Positions 2,856 to 18,990 of a stretch of 64,000 nucleotides of DNA are shown piece after piece. The notes below the pieces were generated by a model. The model saw only the letters and a program-made list of their open reading frames with translations, was not told the origin of the DNA and did no database searches. Where the stretch lies: IMG/VR virus record IMGVR_UViG_3300018414_000006, positions 1-64,000 of that record. One strand, given 5' to 3'. This stretch comes from a virus (lineage: Duplodnaviria; Heunggongvirae; Uroviricota; Caudoviricetes). Position 1 is the first letter of the stretch. Every line of letters begins with the position of its first letter. The translations under genes were made by a program, and so were the position numbers.

Positions 2856-3641
2856 ATGGCAATCCGTACTAATAAAAACGCACGCATTCAAGAAGAAACT
2901 CCCGTTCGTCGTGGCCGTGGCCGTCCTCCGAAAAATGCGCCCACCGCACGTCGCACACGTGAGGTAGAAGATGTTGAATACGATGAATCACCGCGTCAAC
3001 GTAAGGCACAACGTGTTCAAGAAGAAACTCCCGTTCGTCGTGGCCGTGGCCGTCCTCCGAAAAATGCGCCCACCGCACGTCGCACACGTGAGGTAGAAGT
3101 TGCTGATGATGAAATCGCAGTTGAACAACATGTGTTTTTGAAAGTGCAATCCTCAGTGCGCGCAGACACTTCGAAAAAACCCACTACCGTAGCGCTTTTC
3201 GGTGAAGGTGGTGTAGTTATTCCTCGGCAGGAAGTTACTGCAATTGTTGGGCAAACTATTTATTTTAACACTGTGCAGCCGCTTGGAAAAATTCTGTCTA
3301 TTCAGACACTAAACGATCGTCTTGTTTATAAGACTGAAGAATCCGGAAATGTAATTGTGATGGATCCCGATCAGTTTTTTATTACCAGTGGTGTTACTGC
3401 ATCGGACAAAGAATCAGAAGAGGATGTTGCACAGTCACATCGAAAATCTGCACGACGCCAAGATCCGGAAGACGACCCGGAAGATGATACCCAAGAATAT
3501 GAGGAAGAGGAAGAAGGTTCAGAAGAATATGATCCAGAATATGAAGAGGGTGATTCCGAAGATGATACTCAAGAATATGAAGACGGAGAAAATGAGGAAG
3601 GTCCAGAAGAAGACGACGATGATGGTTTTCTGGAATTCTAA
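2856..3641 (+). CDS. AT-hook (GRGRPPK) DNA-binding protein with an acidic C-terminal tail; contains an internal tandem duplication
   Basis: The peptide EETPVRRGRGRPPKNAPTARRTREVE occurs twice, with a perfect 84-nt direct repeat at 2887-2970 and 3016-3099 (129-nt period). RGRP is the AT-hook core. The C-terminus is Asp/Glu-rich (DPEDDPEDDTQEYEEEEEGSEEYD...). Confidence 0.7.
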   Translation: MAIRTNKNARIQEETPVRRGRGRPPKNAPTARRTREVEDVEYDESPRQRKAQRVQEETPVRRGRGRPPKNAPTARRTREVEVADDEIAVEQHVFLKVQSSVRADTSKKPTTVALFGEGGVVIPRQEVTAIVGQTIYFNTVQPLGKILSIQTLNDRLVYKTEESGNVIVMDPDQFFITSGVTASDKESEEDVAQSHRKSARRQDPEDDPEDDTQEYEEEEEGSEEYDPEYEEGDSEDDTQEYEDGENEEGPEEDDDDGFLEF

Positions 3642-4756: not shown

Positions 4757-5029
4757 GTGAAACGAACCCTTCTTGTTGAGAAAGATCCTGATTCCTGCTA
4801 TGGCGCTACGGTATTAGGATTATCCGGATGCTACACATATGGAAACTCGATTGAAGAACTATGCATAAATGCAAAACAGGCGATTCGTTCTCATGTGGAA
4901 ATTATGAGTCAGTGCGATTCTGAAATAGATAATTTGTTTTTGGAATCGGGAATCGAACATTGGAAAAACTGTTTTGATCAGACTTCTCTCATAGAAGTAG
5001 ATGTGAACATTGACGATCTCAAAAATTAA
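4757..5029 (+). CDS. HicB-like (UPF0150) antitoxin-fold protein
   Basis: VEKDPDSCYGATVLGLSGCYTYGNSIEELCINAKQAIRSHVE resembles the HicB N-terminal domain (xEKDEDGGYVAxxPDLPGCxTQGDTLEEALxNAKEAIE). It begins with GTG. Confidence 0.4.
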   Translation: MKRTLLVEKDPDSCYGATVLGLSGCYTYGNSIEELCINAKQAIRSHVEIMSQCDSEIDNLFLESGIEHWKNCFDQTSLIEVDVNIDDLKN

Positions 5030-6680
5030 CATGGCTACTCAAAAACAGTATAATTCTGACAGCATTGAAACTTTACGCTTTCCTGATTCCATTCGAAGAA
5101 ATCCTTCTATGTATCTCGGAAGTGTTGATGCTGACGGTGTGTGGCTTTGCGTAAGAGAATTACTAGATAATGGTCTTGATGAACATCTGGCAGGACGAAA
5201 TGATTCAGTGCATTTTCATGCGGACAATGATGGATCTTTTTGGGTTCTGGATTCTGGACAGGGTGTTCCTCAAGGAGTTAAAAATTATACTACTAACATT
5301 GGTGGTAAAGAAGTAAAACATTCAATGCCCACAATGCAGGCAGTGTTCGGAGAACTTCATACCTCTGGTAAATTTCGAGATGATGCTTACGCTGTTTCAG
5401 TCGGCACACATGGCGTAGGTGCGAAGGGAACTAATGCAACGTCAGATTTTTTTGATGTTCATACATTCTACAAAAATAAATGGTATTCGATTGGTTTCAA
5501 AAAGGGCAAAATTACATCTTCTGTAAAAGAAACCAATGCACCTGTTTTGTGGAATGGTACAAAAGCATCACAGGGAACAGTTATTCACTTCAAGCCAGAT
5601 GCTACTATTTTCACTGCAAAATCCTTCGCACCTAGCAGGATTGTAGAGTGGTCGGAAATCATGGCATATCTGAATCCGGGATTTCGAATCACTGTCAGTT
5701 CTTCAAAAGGAAAGAAGCAATTCTTTTCACGCAAAGGGACTACTGAATACGTCGCACAACGTATGCTCAAGCTGAAAACAGAAGGCGAGCGAACCCTGTT
5801 TGAATATCATGATTCACTTGCGGATATTGTTGTCGCTTTTACAAATCACGATGGTTTTGAAATACGTGGATTTACTAACGGGTTGAATAATAGCCAGGGT
5901 GGCAAGCACGTCGATTCCGTGGTCGGTGCTTTGTACAAAGGGTTGAGTCCTTATATTAAAACTCGCAAGGTACGAGAATCTGGCAAAGTAAAAACTGTTC
6001 CAGTATTTAAAGAAGCGGATCTTAAGGAAGGTCTTGTTGGATTGATTAATGCAAAGTTGCACAAAGCACAATTCAGTTCTCAGGATAAAGCTCGTTTGAC
6101 AGATGATCGTGTCGGAAAAGATTTTGAAGAAACCGTGACTAAAGCCACACTTTCCTTTTTCAGGGAAAACAAAGCTATGGCACTTCGTATCTGCGAACGT
6201 GCTACCAAACTGAATGAGCTTAAAGGTAAGTTCACTCTAAGCAAAAAAGCTGCTGCTACACTTAATGCTGTCAAAAGAAATGGTCTTCCTGCAAAATACG
6301 CACCCTTTAATTCTGCAACTAAAACAGCAGACAGAGAACTTTTTCTTGTGGAAGGCGATTCGGCAGGTGGTTGCTTTTTGGGCAATACACAAATTCGTCT
6401 TAGTGATGGAAGCATTATTTCTTTTGAGGACTTAGAATCCAATAAAAACTTTCCAAAAATTGGTATATCTTGGGATATTGATAAATCACAATTTCTTGAT
6501 ACTGAGTTGAAAGACGTGCGTATTACTAAATACGCACGGCAATTGATTGAACTCACATTTGAAGATGGATCTACTGTGACTTGCACTCCGGATCATCAAT
6601 TTTTAACGGAAAACAGAGGATACGTTGAAGCACAACATTTATGTAGTGACGATATCATACAGCAATACCGGCAGAAATAA
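5010..6680 (+). CDS. Topoisomerase II large subunit (T4 gp39/GyrB-like): N-terminal part fused to a 102-aa N-terminal split-intein fragment
   Basis: GHKL ATPase motifs (ELLDNGLDE, HGVGAKG) run through the TOPRIM motif EGDSAGG. Then come intein block A (CFLGNTQIRLSDGS) and block B (TVTCTPDHQF), followed by a stop. The intein fragment spans 6372..6677. Confidence 0.85.
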   Translation: MTISKINMATQKQYNSDSIETLRFPDSIRRNPSMYLGSVDADGVWLCVRELLDNGLDEHLAGRNDSVHFHADNDGSFWVLDSGQGVPQGVKNYTTNIGGKEVKHSMPTMQAVFGELHTSGKFRDDAYAVSVGTHGVGAKGTNATSDFFDVHTFYKNKWYSIGFKKGKITSSVKETNAPVLWNGTKASQGTVIHFKPDATIFTAKSFAPSRIVEWSEIMAYLNPGFRITVSSSKGKKQFFSRKGTTEYVAQRMLKLKTEGERTLFEYHDSLADIVVAFTNHDGFEIRGFTNGLNNSQGGKHVDSVVGALYKGLSPYIKTRKVRESGKVKTVPVFKEADLKEGLVGLINAKLHKAQFSSQDKARLTDDRVGKDFEETVTKATLSFFRENKAMALRICERATKLNELKGKFTLSKKAAATLNAVKRNGLPAKYAPFNSATKTADRELFLVEGDSAGGCFLGNTQIRLSDGSIISFEDLESNKNFPKIGISWDIDKSQFLDTELKDVRITKYARQLIELTFEDGSTVTCTPDHQFLTENRGYVEAQHLCSDDIIQQYRQK

Positions 6681-6856
6681 GTTCTAATGTGGAAATATTG
6701 TTGTGCCGTAACAATGTCCTTATCGTAAGCAATACAAAATTTCTTATACCATTTCTTGTTCTTGCTCTTAACTGCTATTGCTCGCATCTTAGGATAGTCG
6801 TTCATAGTTTTATTTGGTTGAGGGTGACAAGACATACAACGAAATAAAATTAACAA
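6596..6856 (-). CDS. possible small ORF in the 176-bp gap between the split-intein halves (TTG start; the MSCHPQP... or MNDYPK... form from an internal ATG may be the real one)
   Basis: The only minus-strand ORF that does not overlap a stronger + strand gene. It is Cys/Lys-rich, with no recognisable motif. Its position matches where free-standing endonuclease genes sit in other split-intein loci. Confidence 0.15.
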   Translation of the reverse strand: MLILFRCMSCHPQPNKTMNDYPKMRAIAVKSKNKKWYKKFCIAYDKDIVTAQQYFHIRTYFCRYCCMISSLHKCCASTYPLFSVKN

Positions 6857-8146
6857 ATGAGAATCGTAAATAAACGTAGAATAGAACTACAGAACCCAGT
6901 TCCTGTATACGATCTAACGGTGGATGATTATCATAATTTTGTTTTAGCTAATGGTGCTGTTGTGCATAATAGCGCAAAAGAAGCTCGTTATCAATTTCAG
7001 GCAGTTCTTCCCCTAAAAGGAAAAGTTGCAAATGCTCTAAAAATGGAACAGTCTAAAACTCTGGAATCAGAAGAAATTATCAATATTCTGGCAGCGATTG
7101 GTTATGATATAAAAGCAGCAGATCCATATGCGCGTTTGTCAGTTGGCAAAATTATCTGTCTGGCTGATCCTGATCCTGATGGCCCATTTATCGGAAACAC
7201 GTCAATTCTTATGCGTCCGCCTGGCGCTTTTGAGGGTATTTATAACAAGACTCTTACTATCGAAGAACTGGCCAACGCCAATACTGCTTTTGAAGTACCC
7301 GTGTGGTCTGGTGGCAAACAGATATGGGCATCCGCCAGTGCAAGTTTTATCAAAAATGTAGACCAGATTGTTGCTCTGGAAATTGGTAAAACCAAATTCA
7401 AGGTGGATCTCAATCACAAGTGGATGTGCCTCAATACCAATTCTCTGAAGGGTCGTGAAGTAACGCCTTTCAATGATAATCTGGTGTATGTGAAAGCGAA
7501 AGATCTGCGTGTTGGTGATCGTGTGTTTATGCCATTTAACAATAATAGCAAAAAACCTTCGGAAGTGGATTACAATACGCGATTAGGCTATGCGCCTGTT
7601 TCCAAAATGCGAATTCAGAAACTTGATGAACCTGTACCTGTCTATTGTCTCAATGTACCTCGTTATCATCATTTCATTCTTCCTTCTGGAGTAGTTTCAA
7701 GTAATTGTCACATCAACAGTCTTTTGCTGGCACTGTTCTACAAATATCTTCCAGATCTTTTCACACGAGGAATGATATATGTTTCCGCTGCACCAGAATT
7801 CTATGCAATTCATAAAGGCAATCTGGTAACAGGCGACAGACTTTCTGTGATCAGTGACAAGCTTAAAAAAATTGGAGCATCTGAAAATACACCAATAGTT
7901 CACATTAAAGGCTGGGGAGGAATCAACGCTGACTTGATGCGTATCTTTGCGATGAATCCATCATCAAGAAGACTTATTCAGATAAGAGCTATAGAAAAAG
8001 AAGATCGTGTTGAGTTTGTTAAGCTCATGAATGAAGATGTCGAATTTCGAAGAGAACTTTTTAATCTTCCAATAAATGCAGTCAAAGGATCAGTCAGCAA
8101 AGCAGGAATTATTTCTGCAAAGAATCTTTCTGAAAAGGTGAAATGA
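6857..8146 (+). CDS. Topoisomerase II large subunit (T4 gp60/GyrB C-terminal-like): 38-aa C-terminal split-intein fragment plus C-terminal extein, with a second internal intein
   Basis: MRIVNKRRIELQNPVPVYDLTVDDYHNFVLANGAVVHN|S gives blocks F and G. SAKEARYQFQAVLPLKGKVANALK continues GyrB TOPRIM ([25 protein letters not shown]). DPDPDG is followed by an insert, then CHINSLLLALFYKYLPDL...GMIYVSAAPEF (GyrB: DADVDGSHIRTLLLTFFYR...GHVYIAQPPLY). Confidence 0.85.
   Translation: MRIVNKRRIELQNPVPVYDLTVDDYHNFVLANGAVVHNSAKEARYQFQAVLPLKGKVANALKMEQSKTLESEEIINILAAIGYDIKAADPYARLSVGKIICLADPDPDGPFIGNTSILMRPPGAFEGIYNKTLTIEELANANTAFEVPVWSGGKQIWASASASFIKNVDQIVALEIGKTKFKVDLNHKWMCLNTNSLKGREVTPFNDNLVYVKAKDLRVGDRVFMPFNNNSKKPSEVDYNTRLGYAPVSKMRIQKLDEPVPVYCLNVPRYHHFILPSGVVSSNCHINSLLLALFYKYLPDLFTRGMIYVSAAPEFYAIHKGNLVTGDRLSVISDKLKKIGASENTPIVHIKGWGGINADLMRIFAMNPSSRRLIQIRAIEKEDRVEFVKLMNEDVEFRRELFNLPINAVKGSVSKAGIISAKNLSEKVK
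7184..7705 (+). other. Second, contiguous mini-intein (174 aa) between the TOPRIM DPDPDG motif and CHIN; class-3-like signature
   Basis: The N-terminus PFIGNTSILMRPPG is paralogous to CFLGNTQIRLSDGS but starts with Pro. Block B DLNHKW supplies His plus Trp. Block F PVYCLNVPRYHHF has Cys where intein 1 has Asp (VYDLTV). The C-terminus is GVVSSN with +1 Cys. Confidence 0.55.
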
Positions 8147-8147: not shown

Positions 8148-9653
8148 ATGGTCACTAGAAAAAAAGCAACTCTTTCAGATTTGATTCCCACAAAAGATCA
8201 GGATGTTTTATTTGAATCGCTTCGAGAGTTTGGCAAGCGTAACATGACGATATACGCGGCCGCTGTAAATCTGGACAGATCAGTTCCTGATCTTTTTGAC
8301 GGACTCAAAACGGTTCAAAGGCGCGTGCTTTACGGAACGTTCAAAGAAGCATCCTCACAGTTTGAAAAAACCGCGCGTGTTGTGGGCACCGTTCTGGGTA
8401 GATACCACCCGCACGGGGATCTGTCTGTAGTAAAAGCCATTGAGACAATGGTGCACACTGCTACGCCCGTAGTGACTGGCGAAGGAAACTGGGGCAACAT
8501 GATCGATGGCTGTGCGGCAATGCGTTATACCGATTTGAGATTATCCCAATTCGGAAAAACTTTCTTTGATCCTGATTACATTAACAGTCAGGTAACTTCC
8601 TTCATACCGAATTACGATGATAAAGATGTTGAGCCAGTGACTTTGCCCGCACAACTTCCTAACGTTTTGATGAATGGAAATTCTGGAATCGGTGTAGGTA
8701 TAACAACTACGCTACCTTCATTCACACCCGAATCAATTCAGACTGTTTTGAAAAAAATGCTACAGGGTGAAAAACTGGAAGCTGCTGATTTTGCAAAAAC
8801 TTTGAAGTACGCTCACAAGTGGGGAGGACAACTTGTTAGAACAAAAGAAAATCAGCAGGCATGGCTGAATCTGTTTCAAGGAACCGCAGCTTCTGTATTG
8901 TTTGAATCGGATATTGAAGTAGATCGAGATCATAAACAAATGGTAATTTCGGATTGGCCTCAAGGAACTGATCTTGAAAAATTTGTGAGCAAGATTCGAG
9001 CTATGCCTGAATGCCTGTCTTGTCAGAACTCCAAAGGCTCAATTACCTACACGATCAAATGCAAACCTGCTTATAACTACAATCAGTTTGACAAGTTTCT
9101 TGACAAGGTGAAACGTGCAACACGACAAAAACGTTCTTTCAAACTTAATGTTACTTTGCGGGAATCGCGCACGGTCGATGGCGTAACTACCTTTGAAACA
9201 AAATTTCTTGCAATGTCTGTTCCAGAAATTCTAGTGACATGGCTTCATCTTCGTCTTGATCTTGAACGTCGCAGCCTTGAATGTCGTATCGAAAAACAGA
9301 ATGTTGCTATTGCATATTCTGAGTTACTTCTCTATGCATGCGATAAACTTGACGCAATTTTCAAAGCATTGCGATCCACCGACCCAGAAAGCACAATGAT
9401 GCGTTTGCTCAAAATTACACGTGATCAGTCACAGCAGATCCTGGAATTGAAAGTGCGTCAGTTATCAAAACTGGATCAGTCTGAAATCAGACAGAAATTG
9501 AAAGATCAACAAATGCATTTGAGGCAATTGCAGGCGTGGTTGAAAAAACCGCGCAGCAAGGTAGCACTCGATATAGACAAGACACTTGAATGCATACAGC
9601 GAGATCGTGATGTAGTCACAAAACGCGAAACTCGAAAATTGCAAGTAGTATGA
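8148..9653 (+). CDS. Topoisomerase II DNA breakage-reunion subunit (T4 gp52/GyrA N-terminal-like)
   Basis: LKTVQRRVLYGT (GyrA LKPVHRRVLYAM), YHPHGDLSVVKAIETM (YHPHGDSAVYDTIVRM), and AMRYTDLRLSQ with the catalytic-Tyr motif (AMRYTEIRL). Confidence 0.85.
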   Translation: MVTRKKATLSDLIPTKDQDVLFESLREFGKRNMTIYAAAVNLDRSVPDLFDGLKTVQRRVLYGTFKEASSQFEKTARVVGTVLGRYHPHGDLSVVKAIETMVHTATPVVTGEGNWGNMIDGCAAMRYTDLRLSQFGKTFFDPDYINSQVTSFIPNYDDKDVEPVTLPAQLPNVLMNGNSGIGVGITTTLPSFTPESIQTVLKKMLQGEKLEAADFAKTLKYAHKWGGQLVRTKENQQAWLNLFQGTAASVLFESDIEVDRDHKQMVISDWPQGTDLEKFVSKIRAMPECLSCQNSKGSITYTIKCKPAYNYNQFDKFLDKVKRATRQKRSFKLNVTLRESRTVDGVTTFETKFLAMSVPEILVTWLHLRLDLERRSLECRIEKQNVAIAYSELLLYACDKLDAIFKALRSTDPESTMMRLLKITRDQSQQILELKVRQLSKLDQSEIRQKLKDQQMHLRQLQAWLKKPRSKVALDIDKTLECIQRDRDVVTKRETRKLQVV

Positions 9654-9657
9654 TTCT

Positions 9658-9799
9658 GTTGCACAAAAACAACAGTGTTGCAATTATGCAACACTGTTGT
9701 ATTTTTACAACACACAGCAACAGAAAACTGTGTTATACTGTAAGTGTGGCAACAGGTAACAGCCACCACGTAATCACAATCCTAACGTAAAGGATCATC
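9658..9799 (+). promoter_or_regulatory. Conserved promoter/operator module, copy 1: TTGCACAAAAACAACAGTGTTGC, the palindrome CAACAGTGTTGC-N6-GCAACACTGTTG, an extended -10 TGtTATACT, a 5'UTR hairpin GTGGC...GCCAC and the leader CCTAACGTAAAGGA
   Basis: Near-identical copies are at 10240-10355 and 17637-17763, with a variant at 25588-25672. The palindrome spans 9670-9699 and TATACT sits at 9733-9738. Confidence 0.55.
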
Positions 9800-10219
9800 A
9801 TGAAAATTCCCTCAGATCTTTTTTGTGGACTGTTTGATTCTGATGAGTTGTGTATCTTGAAAACTCTGTATGAACGATATGCACCCAGATCACAATCTGA
9901 AATCTCTGTAGGAAGAAATCGCATCTGTATAAATCTCGGAGCTTACATCATAAAGCTACCTCGAAATGGGGCAGGATTCATAGATAACGATTGGGAAGGA
10001 TCTATCAGTAACGCGCCGGGTGAAAATACTGAAACTGAAATTCAGTATCCGCACACACGCCTTTTTTACGTGAAAAAGAAAGTCCCCATTTTGTTTATGG
10101 AGACAGTGACCCCCGCACCTTTTTTGAAAAGTCCCGAGTGGGTTTATGCAATTGACTCCGGGCAAGTCGGTTATACAAAACGTGGCAGGCTTGTGGCATA
10201 TGATTATGGCATTCGGTGA
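9800..10219 (+). CDS. hypothetical protein (139 aa) flanked on both sides by the promoter module
   Basis: ORF. There is a weak resemblance to a kinase catalytic-loop/DFG pattern (YAIDSGQVGYTKRGRLVAYDYG), but the protein is too short to call. Confidence 0.45.
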   Translation: MKIPSDLFCGLFDSDELCILKTLYERYAPRSQSEISVGRNRICINLGAYIIKLPRNGAGFIDNDWEGSISNAPGENTETEIQYPHTRLFYVKKKVPILFMETVTPAPFLKSPEWVYAIDSGQVGYTKRGRLVAYDYGIR

Positions 10220-10239
10220 GAATGAATGTAGAACCAACA

Positions 10240-10355
10240 ACAGTGTTGCGTAATTGCAACACTGTTGTAAAAATACAACACACAGCAACAGAAAACTGTG
10301 TTATACTACAGGTGTGGCAACAGGTAACCACGTAATCACAATCCTAACGTAAAAG
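10240..10355 (+). promoter_or_regulatory. Conserved promoter/operator module, copy 2
   Basis: Same palindrome (CAACAGTGTTGCGTAATTGCAACACTGTTG) and the same TGTGTTATACT -10 as copies 1 and 3. Confidence 0.5.
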
Positions 10356-10456
10356 GACGATGATCTGCACAAGTCGTTGTAAATTCTAGGACGCCCTGTG
10401 ATCACGACGACTGAACAATCGTCGTGATCACATCTCTAACGTAACGGAGTCTTGAA
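10356..10456 (+). pseudogene. Apparent deletion remnant of a paralog cassette: start context (AGGACGATGATC, a 7-codon ORF) fused to the gene-end context (aaattctagg) plus the conserved CACGACGA hairpin and leader
   Basis: Compare 18470-18552, where an intact paralog ends in aaaaattctaggttaatc and is followed by the hairpin GCACGACGACTG-ttaa-CAGTCGTCGTGC and then the next ATG. Here the gene body is missing. The hairpin GTGATCACGACGA-ctgaacaa-TCGTCGTGATCAC lies at 10398-10431. Confidence 0.3.
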
Positions 10457-10732
10457 ATGGATTTAAAATATCCCGTTGTGCTAACACTCAACATAGACGG
10501 CACTTTTATTGTCACTTTTCCGGATGTGCCCGAGGCAATCACTGTCGGAAAAAATGAAGAAGACGCTTTACAGCGGGCACAAGATGCACTGATGAGCGCA
10601 TATGTTTTTTGTTACAAAGAAATGAATCGTTCATTTCCTCAACCCTCTCAACCGAAGCCGGGACAACGCACTGTTACGCTATCGCTAAATCATTTTATCT
10701 GGACTTCAAAATGGCAAAGTACGATGATCTGA
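10457..10732 (+). CDS. HicB-like (UPF0150) antitoxin-fold protein
   Basis: MDLKYPVVLTLNIDGTFIVTFPDVPEAITVGKNEEDALQRAQDALMSAY matches the canonical HicB N-terminal pattern (MKYPVVIEKDEDGGYVASFPDLPGCHTQGDTLEEALENAKEAL). Confidence 0.45.
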   Translation: MDLKYPVVLTLNIDGTFIVTFPDVPEAITVGKNEEDALQRAQDALMSAYVFCYKEMNRSFPQPSQPKPGQRTVTLSLNHFIWTSKWQSTMI

Positions 10733-11158
10733 ATATAGTTCGTAGCGAACTGTCGAATACGTATCCACTTTCTTTTCTCAGAAAAGTCACAGATATTGCA
10801 ATAACAATTGCAGCAATATTTGAAAAAACGTTAATCATCTTGTGATAGATGCATATAGTATGTCATTGAATAATAATGATGGTATACTGAAAAAAGTGTC
10901 CAGTCTTACCTGAACTATATAATATTCATATGTTAGAAATTGATCTTGGTCACTATATTTTCATAAATATCAATCAGCATAGTTTGACAAACTATGTAGA
11001 TCGTATAAAATTCAAATCAATTTTATCTGAATGTGTTGCTTCTGGTGAAGCTCCAGATACTATCATGTATCCAGAGCAAGATGAACTGGAAAAATGAACA
11101 GAATTATCAAAAACTGTTTAACCGCAGTATATTAACTTTTTACAATTTGAGGAATCTT

Positions 11159-11971
11159 ATGGAAATGACTACAATGAAAGCAGCACCGAAATTCAAAGCA
11201 AGCGAGCTTGTTGTGCTGAATAAAAAAGGTCGGAAAAAATTCAAGAATGATCCGGCTTGGGGCAAAGAAAATTTGCTGAATTCCGTTTTCATTCTTATGA
11301 ATGAAAGCATTCCGCTTTTTCAGAATCGCTCCAAAATTAAGGGCAATGAGCATTTTTATCTGATCAATTATAAATTGTATAGTTATATTGTTCATGAAAA
11401 ATACCTTAAGCGTTTTGATACACCTGACTACTGTGTAGGTGATACCGTTCGTTTTATGTATTGTTCTGACTATCAGATGTCTGAAAAACAGAAGCTATAT
11501 GTAAAAGATAATTGGTCTGATCCTTCTAGTGTAATAAAATATGAATTCAAAGTTCTGGGTTTTGAATATGATAGTGTGTTGAAATCTTCTGTAATTGTTT
11601 CATGTAATGAGATTCCCGGGACACTCAAAGGAAATGTCAAATGGTTTTTATATTCACCGCCATGTGAATATAATGCATATGAAGAAGATGAAGATGAAGA
11701 TGAAGATGATATTGTAACTGTGGAAAAAATTCCTACTCGATTTAGAGATCTCGGATATCTTGTATCCTTTGTCACAGAATTTACACGCAGTCTGCCAGAA
11801 CCAGACATGATTTTTCTGAAAATCTCGGATGATCTGGCGATAAGAATTGAAGATTCAATTGATGTGAAATCCAATACTTTGCGACTACAAAATTTTACTG
11901 ACCCTAGATTACCTCTGTGTTATGTACATGGTTTCAAGAAAGACAAAAAAGTATTTCCAGTAAATGAATAA
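11159..11971 (+). CDS. hypothetical protein with a DEDEDEDD acidic patch (start moved to the ATG after GAGGAA)
   Basis: ORF 11033..11971. An internal in-frame ATG at 11159 has the ribosome-binding site GAGGAAtctt. Confidence 0.45.
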   Translation: MEMTTMKAAPKFKASELVVLNKKGRKKFKNDPAWGKENLLNSVFILMNESIPLFQNRSKIKGNEHFYLINYKLYSYIVHEKYLKRFDTPDYCVGDTVRFMYCSDYQMSEKQKLYVKDNWSDPSSVIKYEFKVLGFEYDSVLKSSVIVSCNEIPGTLKGNVKWFLYSPPCEYNAYEEDEDEDEDDIVTVEKIPTRFRDLGYLVSFVTEFTRSLPEPDMIFLKISDDLAIRIEDSIDVKSNTLRLQNFTDPRLPLCYVHGFKKDKKVFPVNE

Positions 11972-12092
11972 ATTAATCCTGGTCTGATGCCACACAAGTG
12001 TTAATTTTATTTTGCTAGTAAATAACAAGTGTGAAGTTATTTTCACACCTGTTTAATTAAAACCCTTCCTATCACATAAAAGGAAATTTAAA

Positions 12093-12494
12093 ATGGCAAC
12101 GCAACAAAAACAGAATTCGGTTCAAGTGCTCAAACAAGCAGTTTCAGAAATGAGCAAACTGTCTCGTGAAAATTCGAAAAAGGATCGAATCATTGAAAAG
12201 CTGGAAGAACGTGTAACAGCTCTTCGTGAAAAACTTTCCGGCGAAAAGACGCAGCGCAATGTCACAGCAAATAAATCCGCTGCAAAGCGAGGTCGTCCGT
12301 CGCGTAATACGCAAGAAGAAACTCCGGTTCGTCGTGGACGTCCTCCGAAAAATGCACCTACTGCACGTCGCACACATGAAACAGAAGACGATGTTTCTGT
12401 GGCAAAGCGTGGTCGTCCTTCGACGAAAAAGGCACCGATCAAATCGGCAAAGTCTGGAAAAAATGCTGCAACCGATCCGGGATTTTTCATCTGA
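12093..12494 (+). CDS. AT-hook protein 2 (paralog of 2856..3641)
   Basis: EETPVRRGRPPKNAPTARRTHETEDD is nearly identical to the repeat unit of the first AT-hook protein. Additional KRGRPS motifs and an N-terminal coiled-coil-like region are present. Ribosome-binding site AAAGGAAATTTAAAATG. Confidence 0.65.
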   Translation: MATQQKQNSVQVLKQAVSEMSKLSRENSKKDRIIEKLEERVTALREKLSGEKTQRNVTANKSAAKRGRPSRNTQEETPVRRGRPPKNAPTARRTHETEDDVSVAKRGRPSTKKAPIKSAKSGKNAATDPGFFI

Positions 12495-12530
12495 TTGAAA
12501 CAGCAAATATGTTTAAAAGGGAACAGCCTC

Positions 12531-12560
12531 GAAAAGGGATTGTTCCCTTTTGTCGTTTTG
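12531..12560 (+). terminator. rho-independent terminator (GAAAAGGGA-ttgt-TCCCTTTT + GTCGTTTTG)
   Basis: 8-bp stem, tetraloop and a T-rich tail, 37 nt after the stop. Confidence 0.6.
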
Positions 12561-12593
12561 TTACGAAGTTTTTTACCAACTTAAAGGAAAGTC

Positions 12594-13580
12594 ATGAAAA
12601 ACCTGCAACGTGTAGCAGACAATAATTTTGACAGGTTTCAGGCTCGATCTGGACTCACTACAAAAAATCAGTCACAAATGACAAAACTGATTCCAATTCT
12701 TCAACTGGGTTCAAAAAATGGACCCACTGAAGAACAGGCAAAGGCAAATCTTGAAAAAAGAATTCATACTCTTAAAAGTCTTCGAACCGCTTTGATAAAA
12801 GCAAATCTGAAAGTTGCAGATCTGTATCTTGCTGACACTGATACGCAACTCACGCGACTTACTTCTGCACGAAAATCGATGCAGAAAATCGCAGAGGAAA
12901 AATTGCCCATTGGAGTTTCAAGTCACATAAAAGCATGTCTTAATGAACTTACGTGTCTACGTGAGGGCGTGTTTATGGGAACAGCTACAACAAAGAAAAG
13001 TCTGGCAATTATTGCAGGAGCAAATGCGGTAGCAAGAGTCGATGAACTTCTGAAAAACACACGTACTAAACTTCTTGCAAAAACGCAGGTTGCTGCATCT
13101 GAAGATCAATATCTTTCTGAAGTGGAAAAGGTTCTTGAAAAAACACAAAAAGAATCAAAGAATATTTCTGATCTGCACAAACGTTCTTTTGTCATAACTC
13201 GTGTTCCAGTTATCCCTATTGCGCGTGGCCCTATTAATATTCAACGATTGAATAGTTCAGGAATTAAAACAGACACAATTGGCGGCTATCCTGTTCTGCA
13301 TAATCAGATGGTCATAGGAGTCAATAAGTCTTTTCTGAACCTGAAAGAATCAGAAGAATATAAATCACTTGATCCAGAACGAGTAAGAGAAGCTGCACAA
13401 AAAATTCTTGATTCAATATCAAAATCTACAAAACAGAAATTACATTTTGTGGATTCACGCCCCTACGGTGCGCAAGGTGGTGCCTGGTTTTGGGTAATGC
13501 CAGATCGTCAATTGAACATGTTTGCAAAATCTTTACCCGGAAATTCACTGAGACTGACTTCTTGGGGCTTTGCTTTCTAA
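12594..13580 (+). CDS. hypothetical protein (328 aa)
   Basis: ORF with ribosome-binding site TTAAAGGAAAGTCATG. Confidence 0.5.
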   Translation: MKNLQRVADNNFDRFQARSGLTTKNQSQMTKLIPILQLGSKNGPTEEQAKANLEKRIHTLKSLRTALIKANLKVADLYLADTDTQLTRLTSARKSMQKIAEEKLPIGVSSHIKACLNELTCLREGVFMGTATTKKSLAIIAGANAVARVDELLKNTRTKLLAKTQVAASEDQYLSEVEKVLEKTQKESKNISDLHKRSFVITRVPVIPIARGPINIQRLNSSGIKTDTIGGYPVLHNQMVIGVNKSFLNLKESEEYKSLDPERVREAAQKILDSISKSTKQKLHFVDSRPYGAQGGAWFWVMPDRQLNMFAKSLPGNSLRLTSWGFAF

Positions 13581-13591
13581 AGAGAAATTAC

Positions 13592-14146
13592 ATGATAGTA
13601 AATCAGATGTTTGTGTTACCTACCGAAGACACGCTGTATTATCTTTCACAAATATTCAGCGGATGCCCTTTTGATATTGATCTGTCATTGATGCACGTTG
13701 AGGTTAATTCCTCAGTTCAGGAAATGACTCCAGATCCTCTTTTGCTTTATAAAGCAACTGCTGGAACGATGGAAGTGTTCTTTGACACTGCTACGATGGA
13801 AACATCTTTGTTGCTTCCGTTAGAGAGTCGTTCTCTTGTTGAACGTTGTGCTGAATTGAGACAGACTGCGCCTTCTGCTTTTTATTCCAATTCTACAATG
13901 GGCGAAGACTATTATTTTCCATTCATGGTTGTAAAACGTAACATGCCTCCTCGTAGTCGTCATTATAGAAGTTTCATAAATTCGCTATCAAATACACTGG
14001 CCACTACTAGCGACTACCCACTTTTGTTCGAAGGTGAATTTATCGTGACTTCAGATTTCAGCAATGTTCCTGATTACGATTATTATTCTTCTCAGGTAGG
14101 TAATCATCTTCAGGTAACTTCCAGTTCAAAACTTCATCGAGCATAG
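13592..14146 (+). CDS. hypothetical protein (start set at the first ATG after the upstream stop)
   Basis: ORF 13490..14146 overlaps the upstream gene; the in-frame ATG at 13592 follows that gene's stop. Confidence 0.4.
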   Translation: MIVNQMFVLPTEDTLYYLSQIFSGCPFDIDLSLMHVEVNSSVQEMTPDPLLLYKATAGTMEVFFDTATMETSLLLPLESRSLVERCAELRQTAPSAFYSNSTMGEDYYFPFMVVKRNMPPRSRHYRSFINSLSNTLATTSDYPLLFEGEFIVTSDFSNVPDYDYYSSQVGNHLQVTSSSKLHRA

Positions 14147-14193
14147 TAAATAACTAAGTGTAACTCTCTTACCATCGAAACTGGTATCATGTC

Positions 14194-14679
14194 ATGTCAT
14201 CTTATGATGTCAATCTTACTGTCAAACATACGTTACTTCCGCATTGCTGGGTTTGTGGAAAAAGATTTCTTGATTCAACTCCACCCGGAATTGCTGTAAA
14301 AGAAATTCATCACATTGTGCCTCAGCAGGCAGGTGGAACGGACGGACCAACCGTAACTCTTTGCAATGAACATCACGACAAAGCGCATAGGATTGCGCTG
14401 CGTCTTGGTGCTAAAAAACCAAAACCTTATTTTGATTTACTTACTGGCGAGCCTGACATGTGCAGGTCTCGCCTTTTATGGCTTGCTACTGTAATCAGTA
14501 ATGCATTTGCGGCAGTAGCTAATGATCCCAATAAAAAAATAAATGTTGTGCTTGTTCTGACACGCAAGGAACAGTTGATCATTGATCGTTTAAAAAAAGT
14601 TTATCCATCACATAAGTCTCGTGCAGATATTTTCATGCTCGCACTAGAAAATCTGTATCGTAAAACATTTGCAAATTGA
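14194..14679 (+). CDS. HNH endonuclease
   Basis: CWVCGKRF...EIHHIVPQQAGGTDGPTVTLCNEHHDKAH gives the Cys pair, HH, and the N...H...H arrangement of the HNH motif. Confidence 0.65.
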   Translation: MSSYDVNLTVKHTLLPHCWVCGKRFLDSTPPGIAVKEIHHIVPQQAGGTDGPTVTLCNEHHDKAHRIALRLGAKKPKPYFDLLTGEPDMCRSRLLWLATVISNAFAAVANDPNKKINVVLVLTRKEQLIIDRLKKVYPSHKSRADIFMLALENLYRKTFAN

Positions 14680-14703
14680 AACTTTAAATGCTATTTTTGC
14701 CAC

Positions 14704-14732
14704 TTGCATTTTTTAATAGTTTGTGATATAAT
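14704..14732 (+). promoter_or_regulatory. sigma70-type promoter: -35 TTGCAT, 17-bp spacer, extended -10 TGaTATAAT
   Basis: Read directly: cacTTGCATtttttaatagttTGtgaTATAATat. Confidence 0.55.
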
Positions 14733-14799
14733 ATACAAACTCATAAAGGAGAAAATTTATACGTAAATTCTGCAATGAGATTCTAGCAACACGGATGCT

Positions 14800-15528
14800 G
14801 TGCATACTTTTTGCTTCAGCAAAATTTCACTTTTACACAATACGAGAACCATCGTGTTAAAACGTGATACACTCGGAAAAGCAAGTGCTCGTTCATTGAA
14901 TGAAGCGTTCAAATGTGGTGAATGCCTTCACTACAAAAATCATTCCCATTCTTCAAGAGAAAAAGTCTGTGCTGAAGAAGGAGTAAAACCTTTCGGCATT
15001 GCTCCAAAATGTTTTACTCCGAATGTAACAGCCTTGGCACAAAACTCAGATCAGTTTGTGCAAATTGCAACAATGTTTGAGTCATTTACTCCAAAACAGT
15101 GCCGGTTGTTGCTTGCGGTTTTGCGTGGTTCCAAAAACATGAATCGCAAAATCAAGTTTGGCACAAAACTGTATTTCAAGATTGGCAAAGACTACATTAG
15201 CAATTACGTATGTGGCTATGCTGTAGCTTACACAAGTTCCGGCGAACTCGTTTTGATGGGAAGTCCTGATGTGAAAACGCGAGGATCTTCTTTTACTGCT
15301 TATTTCAAAGGCAATGAAGGACTGCTGACACATTCTGAATGGTTACTGAAACGCAAGGAGCTGATTCAGAAAAATTTACTGTTCGACCCTGACAATCGCA
15401 TTGTCAAAAAATCGTCTGTAAAGGATGATTATATTCCACCCACGATTGACAGCAATCTTCAGATTCAGGAAGGCGTGAAGAAAAAAGTACGTGTTCGTAA
15501 AGACACTTATGAATTCCAGGTTCGCTAG
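14800..15528 (+). CDS. hypothetical protein (GTG start; start uncertain)
   Basis: ORF. An upstream in-frame TGA at 14776 prevents extension, and the AAGGAG at 14747 is too far upstream to serve this start. Confidence 0.35.
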   Translation: MHTFCFSKISLLHNTRTIVLKRDTLGKASARSLNEAFKCGECLHYKNHSHSSREKVCAEEGVKPFGIAPKCFTPNVTALAQNSDQFVQIATMFESFTPKQCRLLLAVLRGSKNMNRKIKFGTKLYFKIGKDYISNYVCGYAVAYTSSGELVLMGSPDVKTRGSSFTAYFKGNEGLLTHSEWLLKRKELIQKNLLFDPDNRIVKKSSVKDDYIPPTIDSNLQIQEGVKKKVRVRKDTYEFQVR

Positions 15529-15543
15529 ATAACGGGGGATATC

Positions 15544-16500
15544 GTGATTCAGGAACTTCTGGGAATTACACAATCACAGATGAAAACAATAGGAGGTGCA
15601 ATATTTGCCTATCTGTTCCATAGACCGAACTTCACGCAAAGAGACTTGATTGCATATATCAATAACAAAGAAACTTCGACACGTATCATAGGTGTTATAC
15701 GTAGAGAAGGCACTCTGTTAAAAAACTGCAAATTATACGCATGGGCAGCATTCAAGCATCGATTCTATGATGATGTCAAACCTCAATATAAAAACTATGG
15801 ACTTGATAGAAGTGACGCCCTGTTTCTGTCAAAACTGAATCTTGGTCACCTTGACAAACAGTTTCCTAGTTTTTCTCTTGTCGATTTCGATAGTCTTGTT
15901 GAACAGATAGTGTATGGTCCCAAAATGAAAGCGTACATCGGGCGTTATATCAGCAAAGTCATGACGTTTCTGATTCGCAGTTACGGAGTAAAGCGAGAAG
16001 ACCTGCAAGCGGAAATGCAGATAGCCGCAGTTCGCGCGCTGTACATTCATTATCCACGTTTTGAAACACTTTTGCATTTTGAAAATGTGGCCAAAACTAC
16101 AATTCATAACACTGGTCAAACATTGATTATGTATCACACTTCCCCTTCAAGACAACGGCTTGAATGGAATTCTGTAAAAGGAGATTTTGAACAGCTTCAG
16201 GTAGCTATGCAACATGCGGTAGAAATTAGTGCAGCAGATCCTTATCTGTATCATGTGAAAGACTCGATTCAGTCTCTTGTGAAACTGTCTACCCGTATGA
16301 GTCCTGAAGTACAAAGATTTTTATTATGCTGTGCAGGCCAACATGACAAAGAGTTTTCAGAATTTCTGGGTACTGATAATAGCATATTGGTCGATGAAGT
16401 TGCATGGTCACGATACATGTCAAAAACTAGAAAGTTTTTTAATGTATCTGAAGAGCAGGTGAATCTGCTATTTGAAAAACTTCGCCAAAAACTTTCTTGA
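15544..16500 (+). CDS. hypothetical protein (318 aa)
   Basis: ORF with ribosome-binding context GGGGGATATCGTG. Confidence 0.45.
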   Translation: MIQELLGITQSQMKTIGGAIFAYLFHRPNFTQRDLIAYINNKETSTRIIGVIRREGTLLKNCKLYAWAAFKHRFYDDVKPQYKNYGLDRSDALFLSKLNLGHLDKQFPSFSLVDFDSLVEQIVYGPKMKAYIGRYISKVMTFLIRSYGVKREDLQAEMQIAAVRALYIHYPRFETLLHFENVAKTTIHNTGQTLIMYHTSPSRQRLEWNSVKGDFEQLQVAMQHAVEISAADPYLYHVKDSIQSLVKLSTRMSPEVQRFLLCCAGQHDKEFSEFLGTDNSILVDEVAWSRYMSKTRKFFNVSEEQVNLLFEKLRQKLS

Positions 16501-16560
16501 GAAAAGACATATGAATTCAAAATAGAAATGTAAAACTCACTATCGAAACATGAATCCGAA

Positions 16561-16929
16561 TTGATGAAAAACTTAAAAATGATCACTGAAAAACAAATGA
16601 ATTCTATCAAGGAGCAATCAATTATGAATGAAGAAAATTCGCCGCGTCCATTCGTTTGCGAAGTTGATGGAACTACAATCACTGGAACCGCAGTAATACT
16701 ACAACATGCATTTAAGGATTACGGAGTTGATGTTGTCATTGAAAATCAGAAATACTATTTCGTAATCACACAGACCTGCATAGAACCGTTATTGTATTCT
16801 GTGTCATGGGTAAAGACTTTTGTGGTGGAAAAACTCACAACAATTGAGAACATAAAAATGCTACCTGTTGAACAGGCTTTTGAAAAAGCAATCTTTGCCT
16901 GCCATGACTTGTATCGTAGATACAAGTGA
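16561..16929 (+). CDS. hypothetical protein (122 aa)
   Basis: ORF. Confidence 0.4.
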   Translation: MMKNLKMITEKQMNSIKEQSIMNEENSPRPFVCEVDGTTITGTAVILQHAFKDYGVDVVIENQKYYFVITQTCIEPLLYSVSWVKTFVVEKLTTIENIKMLPVEQAFEKAIFACHDLYRRYK

Positions 16930-16947
16930 AAATCCAAACTAGATTTA

Positions 16948-17235
16948 TTGAAAATCATGAACAGCAAACACATTTGCAAAAAATGTGGTTTCACAAGAGG
17001 GCAGCATCAGGTTTATAGCTATAATTGTCCTGAAGGTGAAAGTTTTTCCCTCAAAGAAAACTTTTCACCTGATTTTGATCAACTTGAACTTACGGTAGCT
17101 CAAAAGAATTCAATTCATTCTGTTCTTGAACAGATAGAAAATATTCTTGATCTACAGAATCTTAACAATCAAGAAATACCACGCAAAGAAGTATTAGATG
17201 TTTTTTATTCTATCCGACAACATTATAGTATCTGA
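16948..17235 (+). CDS. hypothetical protein with CxxC...C motifs (95 aa)
   Basis: ORF containing CKKCGF...YNCPEGE. Confidence 0.4.
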   Translation: MKIMNSKHICKKCGFTRGQHQVYSYNCPEGESFSLKENFSPDFDQLELTVAQKNSIHSVLEQIENILDLQNLNNQEIPRKEVLDVFYSIRQHYSI

Positions 17236-17315
17236 CCTACATTTCTGGTTTCCCTTACTGCTGGTAATTTGCACTGGCCTTTCAGTCATACCATTATCTA
17301 TATGGAGATATCGTC

Positions 17316-17567
17316 ATGGATGCTCTGAAAAGAGTCAAATTGTTAAAAGAAAAGATGATGCCTATCCTTAGATTGGGACAAATCTTTGTAAATCTGTACA
17401 TTCAAGATGAAGATGCATTTAAAGAAGAACCTCTTGATGAGATATCTTTGCTGATATATGAATCGGATGGAACTGAAGCAGAGCATCGTATTTTGAACTG
17501 GCTGTGTGCGCATCATTATTTTTATGGGCACGAACCCGATATTGTAGATTCTTTTTGGAAGATTTAA
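17316..17567 (+). CDS. hypothetical protein (83 aa)
   Basis: ORF with ribosome-binding context GGAGATATCGTCATG. Confidence 0.4.
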   Translation: MDALKRVKLLKEKMMPILRLGQIFVNLYIQDEDAFKEEPLDEISLLIYESDGTEAEHRILNWLCAHHYFYGHEPDIVDSFWKI

Positions 17568-17576
17568 ATCTGGAAC

Positions 17577-17602
17577 GTCTGAGTGTCTGAGTGTCTGAGT
17601 GC
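17577..17602 (+). repeat. 3 x 8-bp tandem repeat (GTCTGAGT)
   Basis: Read directly, immediately upstream of promoter module copy 3. Confidence 0.5.
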
Positions 17603-17636
17603 GAGTTTTGAACCTTCATATTTTTTGTTGCACAAA

Positions 17637-17763
17637 AACAACAGTGTTGCGTAATTGCAACACTGTTGTAAAAATACAACACACAGCAACAGAAAACTGT
17701 GTTATACTGTAAGTGTGGCAACAGGTAACAGCCACCACGTAATCTACCTAACGTAAGGGATTC
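17637..17763 (+). promoter_or_regulatory. Conserved promoter/operator module, copy 3, driving hexapeptide paralog A
   Basis: Near-identical to 9658-9799. Confidence 0.55.
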
Positions 17764-18489
17764 ATGATGGAAAAGAAATACGAACTTACCGAAGAAATCA
17801 AAATTGTTGATGGTGTAACCCTGCATCGCATTCGAGCTTTGAGAGATTTTGCAACTGTTAAAAAAGGAGATCTTGGCGGATGGATTGAAAAAGAGAAAAA
17901 TCTTTCGCATGATAGAAATTGCTGGATATATGACGATGCCTGCGTTATGAATGATGCTCGTGTTCTGCATGATGCTCAAATGTTTGACTATGCACAAATG
18001 CGGAATCATTCTATTATGTTTCAATACTCTTGTATGCATCAAAATTCTCAAATGCTTGGCAATTCTCAAATGCTTGGCAATTCTCAAATGCTTGGCAATT
18101 CTCAAATGTCTGGCAATGCACAGATACGCGACTCTGCACGTTTGAAGGATAATGCTAAAATGTCAGGTGATGCTTATCTGTCAGATCGTGCATGTGTGTC
18201 GGACGATGCACAAATGTCCGGCGATGTAGAACTGTTTTCTGAAGCGCATTTGGGAGGAAAGGGTCTGATTTCAAAATCAACGGATGTTGTGTGGTTTTCA
18301 ATAGGTTCAGAAATTAGCACCTTTACTGTCTACAAAGCACTAGGTGGTTTAGAAGTAACTCATAGGGGGTTTCAAGGAACTGATATTCAATTCTTGAATG
18401 CCATGAAAGAAAAACATGGACTAGATTCTAAACTCTGTAAAGAATATTCAATGTTGATCGATCTGGCTCGTTCAAAAATTCTAGGTTAA
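17764..18489 (+). CDS. Hexapeptide-repeat (left-handed beta-helix-like) protein, paralog A
   Basis: A 6-residue periodicity runs for about 17 turns (ARVLHD AQMFDY ... NSQMLG x3 NSQMSG NAQIRD SARLKD NAKMSG DAYLSD RACVSD DAQMSG). At the DNA level there is an 18-bp tandem repeat at about 18045-18116. The N- and C-termini are shared with 18991..19695. Confidence 0.65.
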   Translation: MMEKKYELTEEIKIVDGVTLHRIRALRDFATVKKGDLGGWIEKEKNLSHDRNCWIYDDACVMNDARVLHDAQMFDYAQMRNHSIMFQYSCMHQNSQMLGNSQMLGNSQMLGNSQMSGNAQIRDSARLKDNAKMSGDAYLSDRACVSDDAQMSGDVELFSEAHLGGKGLISKSTDVVWFSIGSEISTFTVYKALGGLEVTHRGFQGTDIQFLNAMKEKHGLDSKLCKEYSMLIDLARSKILG

Positions 18490-18499
18490 TCATTGTGAA

Positions 18500-18527
18500 G
18501 CACGACGACTGTTAACAGTCGTCGTGC
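18500..18527 (+). terminator. conserved hairpin GCACGACGACTG-ttaa-CAGTCGTCGTGC
   Basis: Perfect 12-bp stem just after the paralog A stop. There is no T-tract. The same CACGACGA core appears at 10398-10431. Confidence 0.45.
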
Positions 18528-18552
18528 TCATCCTCAACATAAAAAGATCATC

Positions 18553-18834
18553 ATGGAAAAATCAAAGATTTTCAATGAAAAATTCAGGTACAATGGTTTT
18601 GTCGTTGACACATGGAATCTAAAACCGGGACAGTGGATCGAGTACGAATTTTCTGGTGGTGTTCGAGAAGAAATGCTGATAACTGCTGTTGATAGCAACG
18701 TGCCTGCTGCTGGTTATATTTGCCCCGTCTATGTTGTTAAGTTTCCCGAAGAAACTGAAATGTTGAACTGGATTTCGACAACATTTGATACTGAATTGGT
18801 TCGAGTTATTTCAGAACTGACTGCACCGACATGA
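18553..18834 (+). CDS. hypothetical protein (93 aa)
   Basis: ORF. Confidence 0.45.
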   Translation: MEKSKIFNEKFRYNGFVVDTWNLKPGQWIEYEFSGGVREEMLITAVDSNVPAAGYICPVYVVKFPEETEMLNWISTTFDTELVRVISELTAPT

Positions 18835-18880
18835 GCATTTTCAAATTTTAATGTCTGATTTTAGAAATTGGTTCTAAGAA

Positions 18881-18905: not shown

Positions 18906-18990
18906 CACGTTCAAGAATTCTAGGTTAATCATTTCTGTGATCTACACCAATTGTTAGTCGTGAATAAATTGCTAACATAACAGAGCTATC

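Follow-up and report, generated by a model that had tools for sequence, protein, structure and literature searches.

The DNA analyzed here is a window of 64,000 nucleotides, positions 1 to 64,000 of the IMG/VR virus record IMGVR_UViG_3300018414_000006 (Caudoviricetes), whose early region carries four copies of an intergenic, promoter-like cassette of about 140 bases, the subject of this study. The genes of the window lie nearly all on the + strand, and its G+C content is 38%. Protein comparisons showed the window to be collinear with the Ralstonia jumbo phage phiRSL1, from open reading frame 317 (ORF317) through gyrB/gyrA to the NAD ligase, and further through topoisomerase IB and the head genes to the tail sheath and tube. 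Judged by these proteins, the source phage is an uncultured relative of phiRSL1. No close DNA relative was found by megablast among 50,697 phage genomes, and peptide-seeded searches of IMG/VR with ORF 9800 and with GyrA returned zero matches.

All four cassettes sit between genes, with their 5' edges 1-56 nt past stop codons and their 3' edges at start codons (Table 1). A repeat search grouped 9654-9775, 10222-10343 and 17623-17744 into one family, and a shorter family added 25586-25660. The first-pass annotation, made from the letters of the window, had described four copies of a conserved promoter/operator module here; all four were recovered, the three main ones with starts slightly earlier than it had placed them (9654, 10222 and 17623). 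Compared without gaps across 122 nt, copy 3 (17623) was 92% and copy 2 (10222) 74% identical to copy 1, the lower value reflecting the different 5' edge of copy 2, from which the first of the symmetric units described below is absent, and a 6-nt deletion in its leader. From the third unit through the -10 element, copies 1-3 are identical in an alignment of the four regions. The string CAACAGTGTTGC has seven exact occurrences, six of them within the three main copies, where 0.38 would be expected with up to one mismatch. Copy 3 precedes a gene for a hexapeptide-repeat paralog (17764-18489), and the gene behind the variant copy probably starts at the ATG at 25699, which is preceded by GGAGAG, rather than at 25675. 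The three main copies are too alike to show constraint by themselves, and the argument made below therefore rests on relatives of the phage.

Table 1. Coordinates of the cassettes and their parts in the window
Feature	Position	Strand	Description
Cassette copy 1	9654-9799	+	Defined by repeat family and alignment; between the stop codon of the gyrA-like gene (9653) and the ATG of ORF 9800-10219
Triple dyad, copy 1	9657-9712	neutral	TGTTGCACAAAAACAACA 9657-9674, TGTTGCAATTATGCAACA 9676-9693, TGTTGTATTTTTACAACA 9695-9712
Second inverted repeat	9712-9733	neutral	ACACAG-N10-CTGTGT (arms 9712-9717 and 9728-9733) in the -35/-10 spacer; copies 1-3 only
Extended -10, copy 1	9731-9739	+	TGtTATACT, hexamer 9734-9739; predicted start near 9746
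Hairpin in the 5' untranslated region (5'UTR)	9746-9766	+	GTGGC-N11-GCCAC; copies 1 and 3 only; whole-leader z = -1.7
Translation-initiation element, copy 1	9780-9794	+	TCCTAACGTAAAGGA; anti-Shine-Dalgarno/Shine-Dalgarno (anti-SD/SD) mini-hairpin 5 nt before ATG 9800
Cassette copy 2	10222-10357	+	Dyads 10244-10261, 10263-10280; -10 TATACT 10302-10307; leader CCTAACGTAAAAGGA 10343-10357
Copy 2 long leader	10360-10456	+	Mini-ORF 10360-10389; 13-bp hairpin 10398-10431; element TCTCTAACGTAACGGAG 10433-10449
Cassette copy 3	17623-17763	+	Dyads 17626-17643, 17645-17662, 17664-17681; -10 17703-17708; leader 17747-17760
Variant cassette	25586-25674	+	Direct units 25587-25604, 25606-25623, 25625-25642; TGcTACAAT, hexamer 25664-25669

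The basic unit of the cassette is an 18-bp dyad, TGTTGY-N6-RCAACA, of which copies 1 and 3 contain three each and copy 2 contains two, abutting at a 19-bp pitch. Exact matches to TGTTG-N8-CAACA number eight in the window, all of them inside the main copies, as compared to 0.055 expected (200 shuffles). The bases at the dyad junctions are G then C in the main copies, which renders the whole array symmetric and thereby creates a perfect palindrome of 14 bp. The palindrome that the first-pass annotation had singled out is indeed present at 9670-9699, but its 12-N6-12 layout is a by-product of abutting 18-bp dyads and not the functional unit; the full 30-nt palindrome pattern had zero matches in IMG/VR. 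The three direct repeats reported for the variant could be refined to 19-nt units, TGTTG-N8-CAACg, each one mismatch away from the dyad; since these units are direct and joined by G, the variant lacks a long palindrome. Between copies 1 and 3 the arrays differ only in the N8 centers, where the loops are inverted (AATTAT at 9682-9687 versus GTAATT at 17651-17656; ATTTTT at 9701-9706 versus AAAAAT at 17670-17675). Such loop inversion is mechanical palindrome behavior (template switching or cruciform inversion) and not evidence of selection. Two smaller repeats were seen in connection with the cassettes: a tandem CTGAGTGT in three copies (17579-17602) lies directly 5' of copy 3, and 16 nt of the cassette junction (AAAACAACAGTGTTGC) recur exactly at 23662-23678, inside the 3' end of the NAD-ligase gene; this copy amounts to half a site and may be a relic or a chance match.

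Downstream of the array the geometry is strict. The last dyad ends 21 nt before a -10 hexamer in all four cassettes, and this spacing is kept in the variant even though its 21 nt are unrelated to the main-copy sequence. The -10 element is extended and reads TGtTATACT or TGcTACAAT (general form TGnTAYAMT), and a usable -35 box is absent in all four copies, the position reading CACACA (copy 1) or CGGTGT. A sigma-70 consensus scan of the window did not list the cassette promoters; nearby dyad-free promoters have good -35 boxes (TTGACA-16-TAAAAT at 10984 and TTGCCA-N-TGATATAAT at 14693). With its center 30.5 bp upstream of the -10 hexamer in 4/4 cassettes, the last dyad would be centered at -41.5 to -42.5 if transcription starts 6-7 nt after the -10; for a start 7 nt past it, the dyad centers would fall at about -42.5, -61.5 and -80.5, and the proximal dyad would span about -51 to -34. 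None of the window dyads overlaps the -10 or the predicted start site. These features support the annotated module as a repeated promoter with an extended -10, its activity being predicted from sequence; the genes behind it are presumed early solely from their position on the early arm.

Relatives were gathered by way of the GyrA-like protein, with the complete phiRSL1 genome used as well, and the comparison covered phiRSL1 (231 kb), Burkholderia phage BCSR5 (41 kb) and two metagenomic sequences, L119 and L122, whose GyrA proteins are 68% and 51% identical to that of the window. Exact dyads were found in each: 7 in phiRSL1 (0.11 expected), 8 in BCSR5 (0.03 expected), 2 in L119 (0 expected) and 3 in L122 (0.01 expected), all measured against 200 shuffles. 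A dyad site following gyrA is present in 5/5 genomes (window, L119, L122, phiRSL1 and BCSR5); the position of copy 1 is syntenic with phiRSL1 site 227653, that of copy 3 roughly matches phiRSL1 site 6791, and the variant also has a rough phiRSL1 counterpart. The structural region of the window (38-63 kb) carries no dyads.

Most sites in the relatives are single dyads; all lie in intergenic DNA ahead of sigma-70-like promoters, several of which share the TGtTAYAAT extended -10 (the -10 assignments in relatives were made by eye). The promoters behind the dyads read TTGCGC-17-TGtTATAAT and TTGCGT-N-TGtTACAAT in L119, TTGACG-17-TGtTACAAT plus a TGtTATACT promoter in L122, TTGCAC/TTGCGC-17-CATAAT in phiRSL1, and include TTGACG-18-TGtTATGAT in BCSR5. 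All seven phiRSL1 dyads lie on the + strand of the early arm, 48-56 bp before GCATAAT, and, conversely, 7/8 of the GCATAAT strings in that genome are preceded by a dyad at this distance. Dyad centers fall near -60 in phiRSL1, near -51 in L119 and at about -63 to -72 in L122, and the post-gyrA promoter of BCSR5 has the same 21-nt dyad-to--10 distance as the window.

The 28 exact sites were selected on TGTTG and CAACA; one base further in, 28/28 sites have Y in the left half and R in the right half, and the flanking base is mostly S. The only half-site departure is the terminal A to G in the three variant units of the window. The N8 center has a G+C content of 12-34%, in genomes of 38-58% G+C (48-58% in the relatives). 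The stem sequence is held fixed while the loop drifts across base compositions, which argues for sequence-specific recognition and not for structure alone.

The phiRSL1 genome has no RNA polymerase gene, and rifampicin blocks the phage fully (PMC5468394), so that promoters of this lineage must use the host RNA polymerase. Taken together, the host-polymerase dependence, the extended -10 without a -35 and the symmetric site at a fixed 21 nt suggest that the dyads are protein sites that govern initiation. It is very likely, on this comparative basis, that the dyad is the binding site of a dimeric, sequence-specific regulator that controls one gene class. A dedicated regulator acting on an upstream symmetric element had been proposed in the first-pass annotation, and conservation in the four relatives makes it very probable; since they share a symmetric element that such a factor would target, the genes of the four cassettes would also form one co-regulated class, as had been suggested, and the comparison supports this as well.

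How such a regulator might act can be outlined from the geometry. Host sigma-70 RNA polymerase would read each cassette through a core made of the extended -10, and each dyad, with its A/T-rich center, would bind one dimer of the regulator. If the regulator is an activator, its dimer nearest the promoter would stand in for the absent -35 contact in class II style, and the upstream dimers would add cooperative binding or, in class I style, contacts with the C-terminal domain of the polymerase alpha subunit; ORF 9800, the HicB-like gene, the cluster of hexapeptide-repeat paralogs and ORF 25699 would then be switched on together. At promoters of the CRP/FNR type, class II activator sites center at about -41.5 and class I sites at about -61.5. 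The cassettes are like these promoters in having a symmetric site in place of the -35, some 30 bp upstream of the -10, with more sites one or two double-turns further up, and the core TTG-N8-CAA is identical to that of FNR/FixK sites. In contrast to FNR, the inner bases are TTGY rather than TTGAT, the window site measures 18-20 bp at a 19-bp pitch and its start sites are predicted ones, and no protein of the CRP/FNR family is linked to the dyad. An activator-read sigma-70 promoter cassette is, in our view, the best explanation overall, which we would put at about an even chance of being correct.

With the same cassette and the same dyads, the protein could instead be a repressor that coats the -35/UP-element region or loops the DNA, for an early-to-middle switch or for autoregulation. 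A protein on the proximal dyad could exclude RNA polymerase, the A/T-rich centers of the dyads lie at UP-element positions, and the cassettes are on the early arm, where the host polymerase acts without phage help. Moreover, BCSR5 has dyad pairs that flank promoters at distances of 96 bp (4061/4157), 94 bp (15784/15878) and 75 bp (33626/33701), an arrangement typical of looping repressors. However, in phiRSL1, L119 and L122 the sole dyad lies wholly upstream of the -35 (about -50 to -72), where a lone repressor rarely works, the -35 of the window is missing precisely where the dyad sits, and no window dyad covers the -10 or the start. Because sites wholly upstream of the -35 fit activation more easily than repression, we lean toward an activator, with moderate confidence, and regard the repressor as possible but rather doubtful.

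Several observations weigh against an activator-read cassette. The dyad-to--10 distance ranges over 21-51 nt across the lineage and keeps no single helical phase; phasing of the dyad relative to the -10 had looked promising in the first promoters and failed once BCSR5 and phiRSL1 were added. Three BCSR5 promoters have their second dyad in the 5'UTR, in a looping-like arrangement. An extended -10 promoter can function without an activator and can be constitutive, as the repressor alternative would have it. The internal conservation of the main copies could stem from recent duplication or gene conversion. Finally, about 35 window proteins were scanned with Pfam, PHROGs and NCBIfam and revealed no classical DNA-binding domain, and no Ogr-like CX2CX22CX4C zinc finger occurs in the ORFs of the window, L119, L122 or complete phiRSL1.

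The same scans yielded only a pair of proteins with AT-hook motifs (2856-3641 and 12093-12494), a pair with HicB-like domains and, at 21048-21644, a member of a PHROG labeled "DNA binding protein". A homolog search with the latter returned only itself, and its single-sequence structure model (predicted local distance difference test score, pLDDT, of 46) was discarded. The two AT-hook proteins, which are early and have homologs in phiRSL1, L119 and L122, contain a 96-nt coding repeat (2882-2977, 3011-3106 and 12299-12394) that encodes the AT-hook-like stretch RGRGRPPKNAPTARRT. Sequence searches of the PDB gave no match. A site-adjacent regulator was also sought by all-against-all BLASTP and phmmer comparison of the ORFs near the sites in 26 IMG/VR loci that carry the dyad (see below), the window, L119 and L122, and was rejected, the sole shared "family" consisting of spurious ORFs reading through repeats; Pfam found nothing relevant in 10 small ORFs neighboring the sites. 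Such a protein may come from a gene beyond the window, from the virion or from the host.

Repeated cassettes that join a hairpin to a promoter are known from T4-type phages, where promoter-early stem-loops (PeSLs) combine a terminator with a promoter, flank small variable genes and drive modular shuffling (Arbiol et al. 2010, PMC2839356; Comeau et al. 2014, PMC4122927). The window cassettes share much with them: they are short, intergenic and present many-fold in an early variable region, their layout runs from a stop codon through an A/T-rich stretch or stem-loop and a sigma-70-type promoter to SD and ATG, they enclose small genes of unknown function (here ORF 9800, without a phiRSL1 homolog, between the direct copies 1 and 2), and they are likely recombination substrates. 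Could they work without a dedicated regulator, the RNA stem-loop terminating or attenuating transcription ahead of a constitutive promoter and the repeats persisting through recombination? The array hairpin has a predicted folding energy of -24 to -26 kcal/mol (z score about -4 to -5), and the cassettes begin shortly after stop codons. In copy 1, which comes directly behind the gyrB-gyrA operon, UAUUUUUA follows the hairpin (9669-9700, with a 14-bp stem and 6 G-C pairs), and one public assembly of this phage breaks off within the central dyad. However, these Rho-independent terminator features, including ATTTTT, are found at copy 1 alone. A stable hairpin is predicted for copies 1-3 and not for the variant, and because the dyad loop is inverted between copies, only copy 1 has a T-run 3' of it, copies 2 and 3 having AAAAAT on the transcribed strand. 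The variant cannot form the long hairpin and still retains its units and their spacing, and L122 has a separate canonical terminator before the dyad; termination is therefore not the conserved role. PeSL stems are G/C-rich and vary in sequence, and terminator stems do not hold one sequence over 38-58% G+C, whereas here one specific dyad is held across these compositions. PeSL promoters also have a full -35/-10 consensus, which the window promoters lack on the -35 side, and the phage lineage is unrelated to the T4-type phages. An explanation without a regulator thus appears improbable. Termination of transcription at copy 1 is plausible and could coexist with the regulator, and recombination at the cassettes is likely an evolutionary side-effect. 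In form, the cassette looks like a PeSL in which a specific protein site replaces the generic stem; in function, it looks like an activator-dependent or operator-controlled phage promoter.

Known regulators with similar sites were considered as well. The Ogr/Delta sites of P2-type late promoters (P2, P4 and 186) have the skeleton TGT-N12-ACA and lie upstream of a weak sigma-70 promoter (PMC3931495). The dyad TGTTG-N8-CAACA fits this skeleton, the sites of P2 PO and PV begin with TGTTGT, and P2 sites are centered near -55 to -58 (as read from the P2 record), compared with about -60 in phiRSL1 and -61.5 for the middle dyad of the window. On the other hand, the sites here form abutting arrays, and their targets are small accessory genes of the early arm and not late morphogenesis operons; P2 and P4 contain no close TGTTG-N8-CAACA match, and Ogr_Delta gave no Pfam match among 30 window proteins. 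Membership in the Ogr/Delta system was rejected on the grounds that no CX2CX22CX4C protein was found in the window, L119, L122 or phiRSL1 and no close site in P2 or P4, and that the targets are not late. PpsR/CrtJ sites are likewise 18-bp TGT-N12-ACA dyads that are often paired, as is the TyrR box, TGTAAA-N6-TTTACA. Unlike the phage dyad, these sites belong to host regulons of particular bacteria, differ in the inner bases of the half-site and have no link to these phages. No description of the dyad motif was found in a literature search, which did not cover the 2010 phiRSL1 genome paper, and a full-text literature search with the phiRSL1 site sequence gave zero matches. We place the cassette among the regulated, repeated phage promoter cassettes.

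Outside the phiRSL1 lineage, abutting pairs of exact dyads (20 specified bases) were found at 26 IMG/VR loci of 28-59% G+C, as compared to 0 and 1 loci for control patterns of equal composition and symmetry. Contigs with these pairs have no proteins in common with phiRSL1 or the window. Several of the pairs lie just 5' of promoters of the TTGACA-17-TATACT type, and one locus (L215/L203) ends in ctgTGTTATACTgta, like the window. Exact single dyads in non-coding DNA were detected by BLAST in gokushovirus KT264809 (401-418) and in Pelagibacter phage HTVC010P (607-624), although their significance is borderline; a 16-nt single-unit pattern run against IMG/VR gave scattered single matches only and was uninformative. 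In one group of dyad-bearing contigs, umuDC-like genes are accompanied by a nearby CTGT-N8-ACAG SOS box. Retention of the dyad in phiRSL1-like phages, its pairs on 26 unrelated contigs and the single sites elsewhere raise the idea that (S)TGTTGY-N6-RCAACA(S) might be the site of a widespread, undescribed phage or host regulator that times a gene class in unrelated phages; we put this forward tentatively, as something we think unlikely on present comparisons.

These contigs also bear on whether the arrays might serve another DNA transaction, as replication-origin iterons or in partition or packaging, and be intergenic by coincidence. Some of the unrelated IMG/VR contigs have longer, degenerate arrays beside A/T-rich repeats, and abutting symmetric repeats of 18-19 bp beside A/T-rich DNA resemble the iterons of lambdoid origins. 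Such a role agrees poorly with four to eight dispersed sites per genome, which in most relatives are single dyads, and with the fact that each site is promoter-linked, at a short distance from a -10 and a start codon and always on the transcribed early arm; we consider it very improbable.

The remaining parts of the cassette separate from the dyad-promoter core. Copy 1 contains the second inverted repeat as well as the 5'UTR hairpin, as first described, but both are missing from the variant and the relatives; they are not conserved, and we attach no function to them. In copy 2 the 5'UTR hairpin lacks its 3' arm because of the 6-nt deletion. The leader that had been counted as part of the module also exists, but it is a separate initiation element, since it occurs at genes without a promoter cassette: the motif CTAACGTAA is found at 140, 10436 and 19739 before such genes, and once inside the ligase gene (22836). 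Forms of (C)TCCTAACGTAA(C/A/G)GGA(G) stand 5-10 nt before start codons at 137-153, 9780-9794, 10343-10357, 10433-10449, 17747-17760 and 19738-19752, and are predicted to fold as an anti-SD/SD mini-hairpin. The element of copy 1 has a homologous form in phiRSL1, CTCCCATCGAAACGGAG; a phiRSL1 17-mer, CTCCCATCGAAA(C/A)GGAG, which is identical to the window CTCCTAACGTAACGGAG at 13/17 bases, has about 15 sites, almost all a few bases before an early-arm ATG, and L122 carries TTAACGAAACGGTG at the corresponding place. By these comparisons the leader motif is a lineage-conserved translation-initiation element, separate from the promoter, and possibly a translational operator.

Behind copy 2, the long leader precedes the HicB-like gene (10457-10732). 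Its 9-codon mini-ORF (MICTSRCKF) directly follows the copy 2 leader motif, upstream of the hairpin and the HicB-like gene, and may represent a leader-peptide arrangement. A second repeated palindrome with the core CACGACGA...TCGTCGTG, absent from shuffled sequences, is present at 10398-10431 and 18496-18531, where it forms strong predicted hairpins without a T-run in the leaders of HicB-like gene 10457 and ORF 18553. Rfam 15 gave no match at the gathering score in 9000-27000, where only sub-threshold chance matches were seen.

Other repeats and gene arrangements of the window were recorded along the way. The GyrB-like gene (whole span 5010-8146) is split into ORFs 5010-6680 and 6857-8146, which a 52-codon ORF separates; ORF 6857-8146 has weak intein/HINT matches, and gyrB is single in phiRSL1 and L119. 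The hexapeptide-repeat protein (PHROG 7964/5070) has at least three paralogs, 1-124 (cut by the window start), 17764-18489 and 18991-19695, with a 76-nt repeat (18905-18980 and 19672-19747, 93% identical) at paralog 3' ends; contigs of this phage in public data are short and end at the repeats of these paralogs. A region with no clear + strand gene (30988-31416), which holds an array of about 36-nt tandem repeats (7 copies, 60-83% alike) and a 31-nt family ending in GAGAAACCCT, adjoins a homolog (30043-30951) of the phiRSL1 transposase-like ORF034. Dispersed repeats of the structural region (52233-52369/54727-54863, 90%; 45297-45420/54367-54490, 81%) include duplicated small genes related to phiRSL1 ORF124.

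How phiRSL1-like jumbo phages regulate their genes is essentially undescribed, and without a polymerase of their own these phages must steer the host enzyme. A conserved dyad of fixed geometry can serve as bait for the regulator and as a marker of one temporal gene class in uncultured relatives, and the cassette offers a testable promoter design, an extended -10 with an arrayed upstream site. Assembly breaks are likewise accounted for by the repeated cassettes, which are probably recombination points for the gain of accessory genes. If the widespread regulator raised above exists, the dyad together with the anti-SD/SD element would give two-layer control, of transcription and of translation, over accessory genes of jumbo phages that depend on the host polymerase; and should unrelated phages really use the site, this would suggest a common, overlooked regulator.

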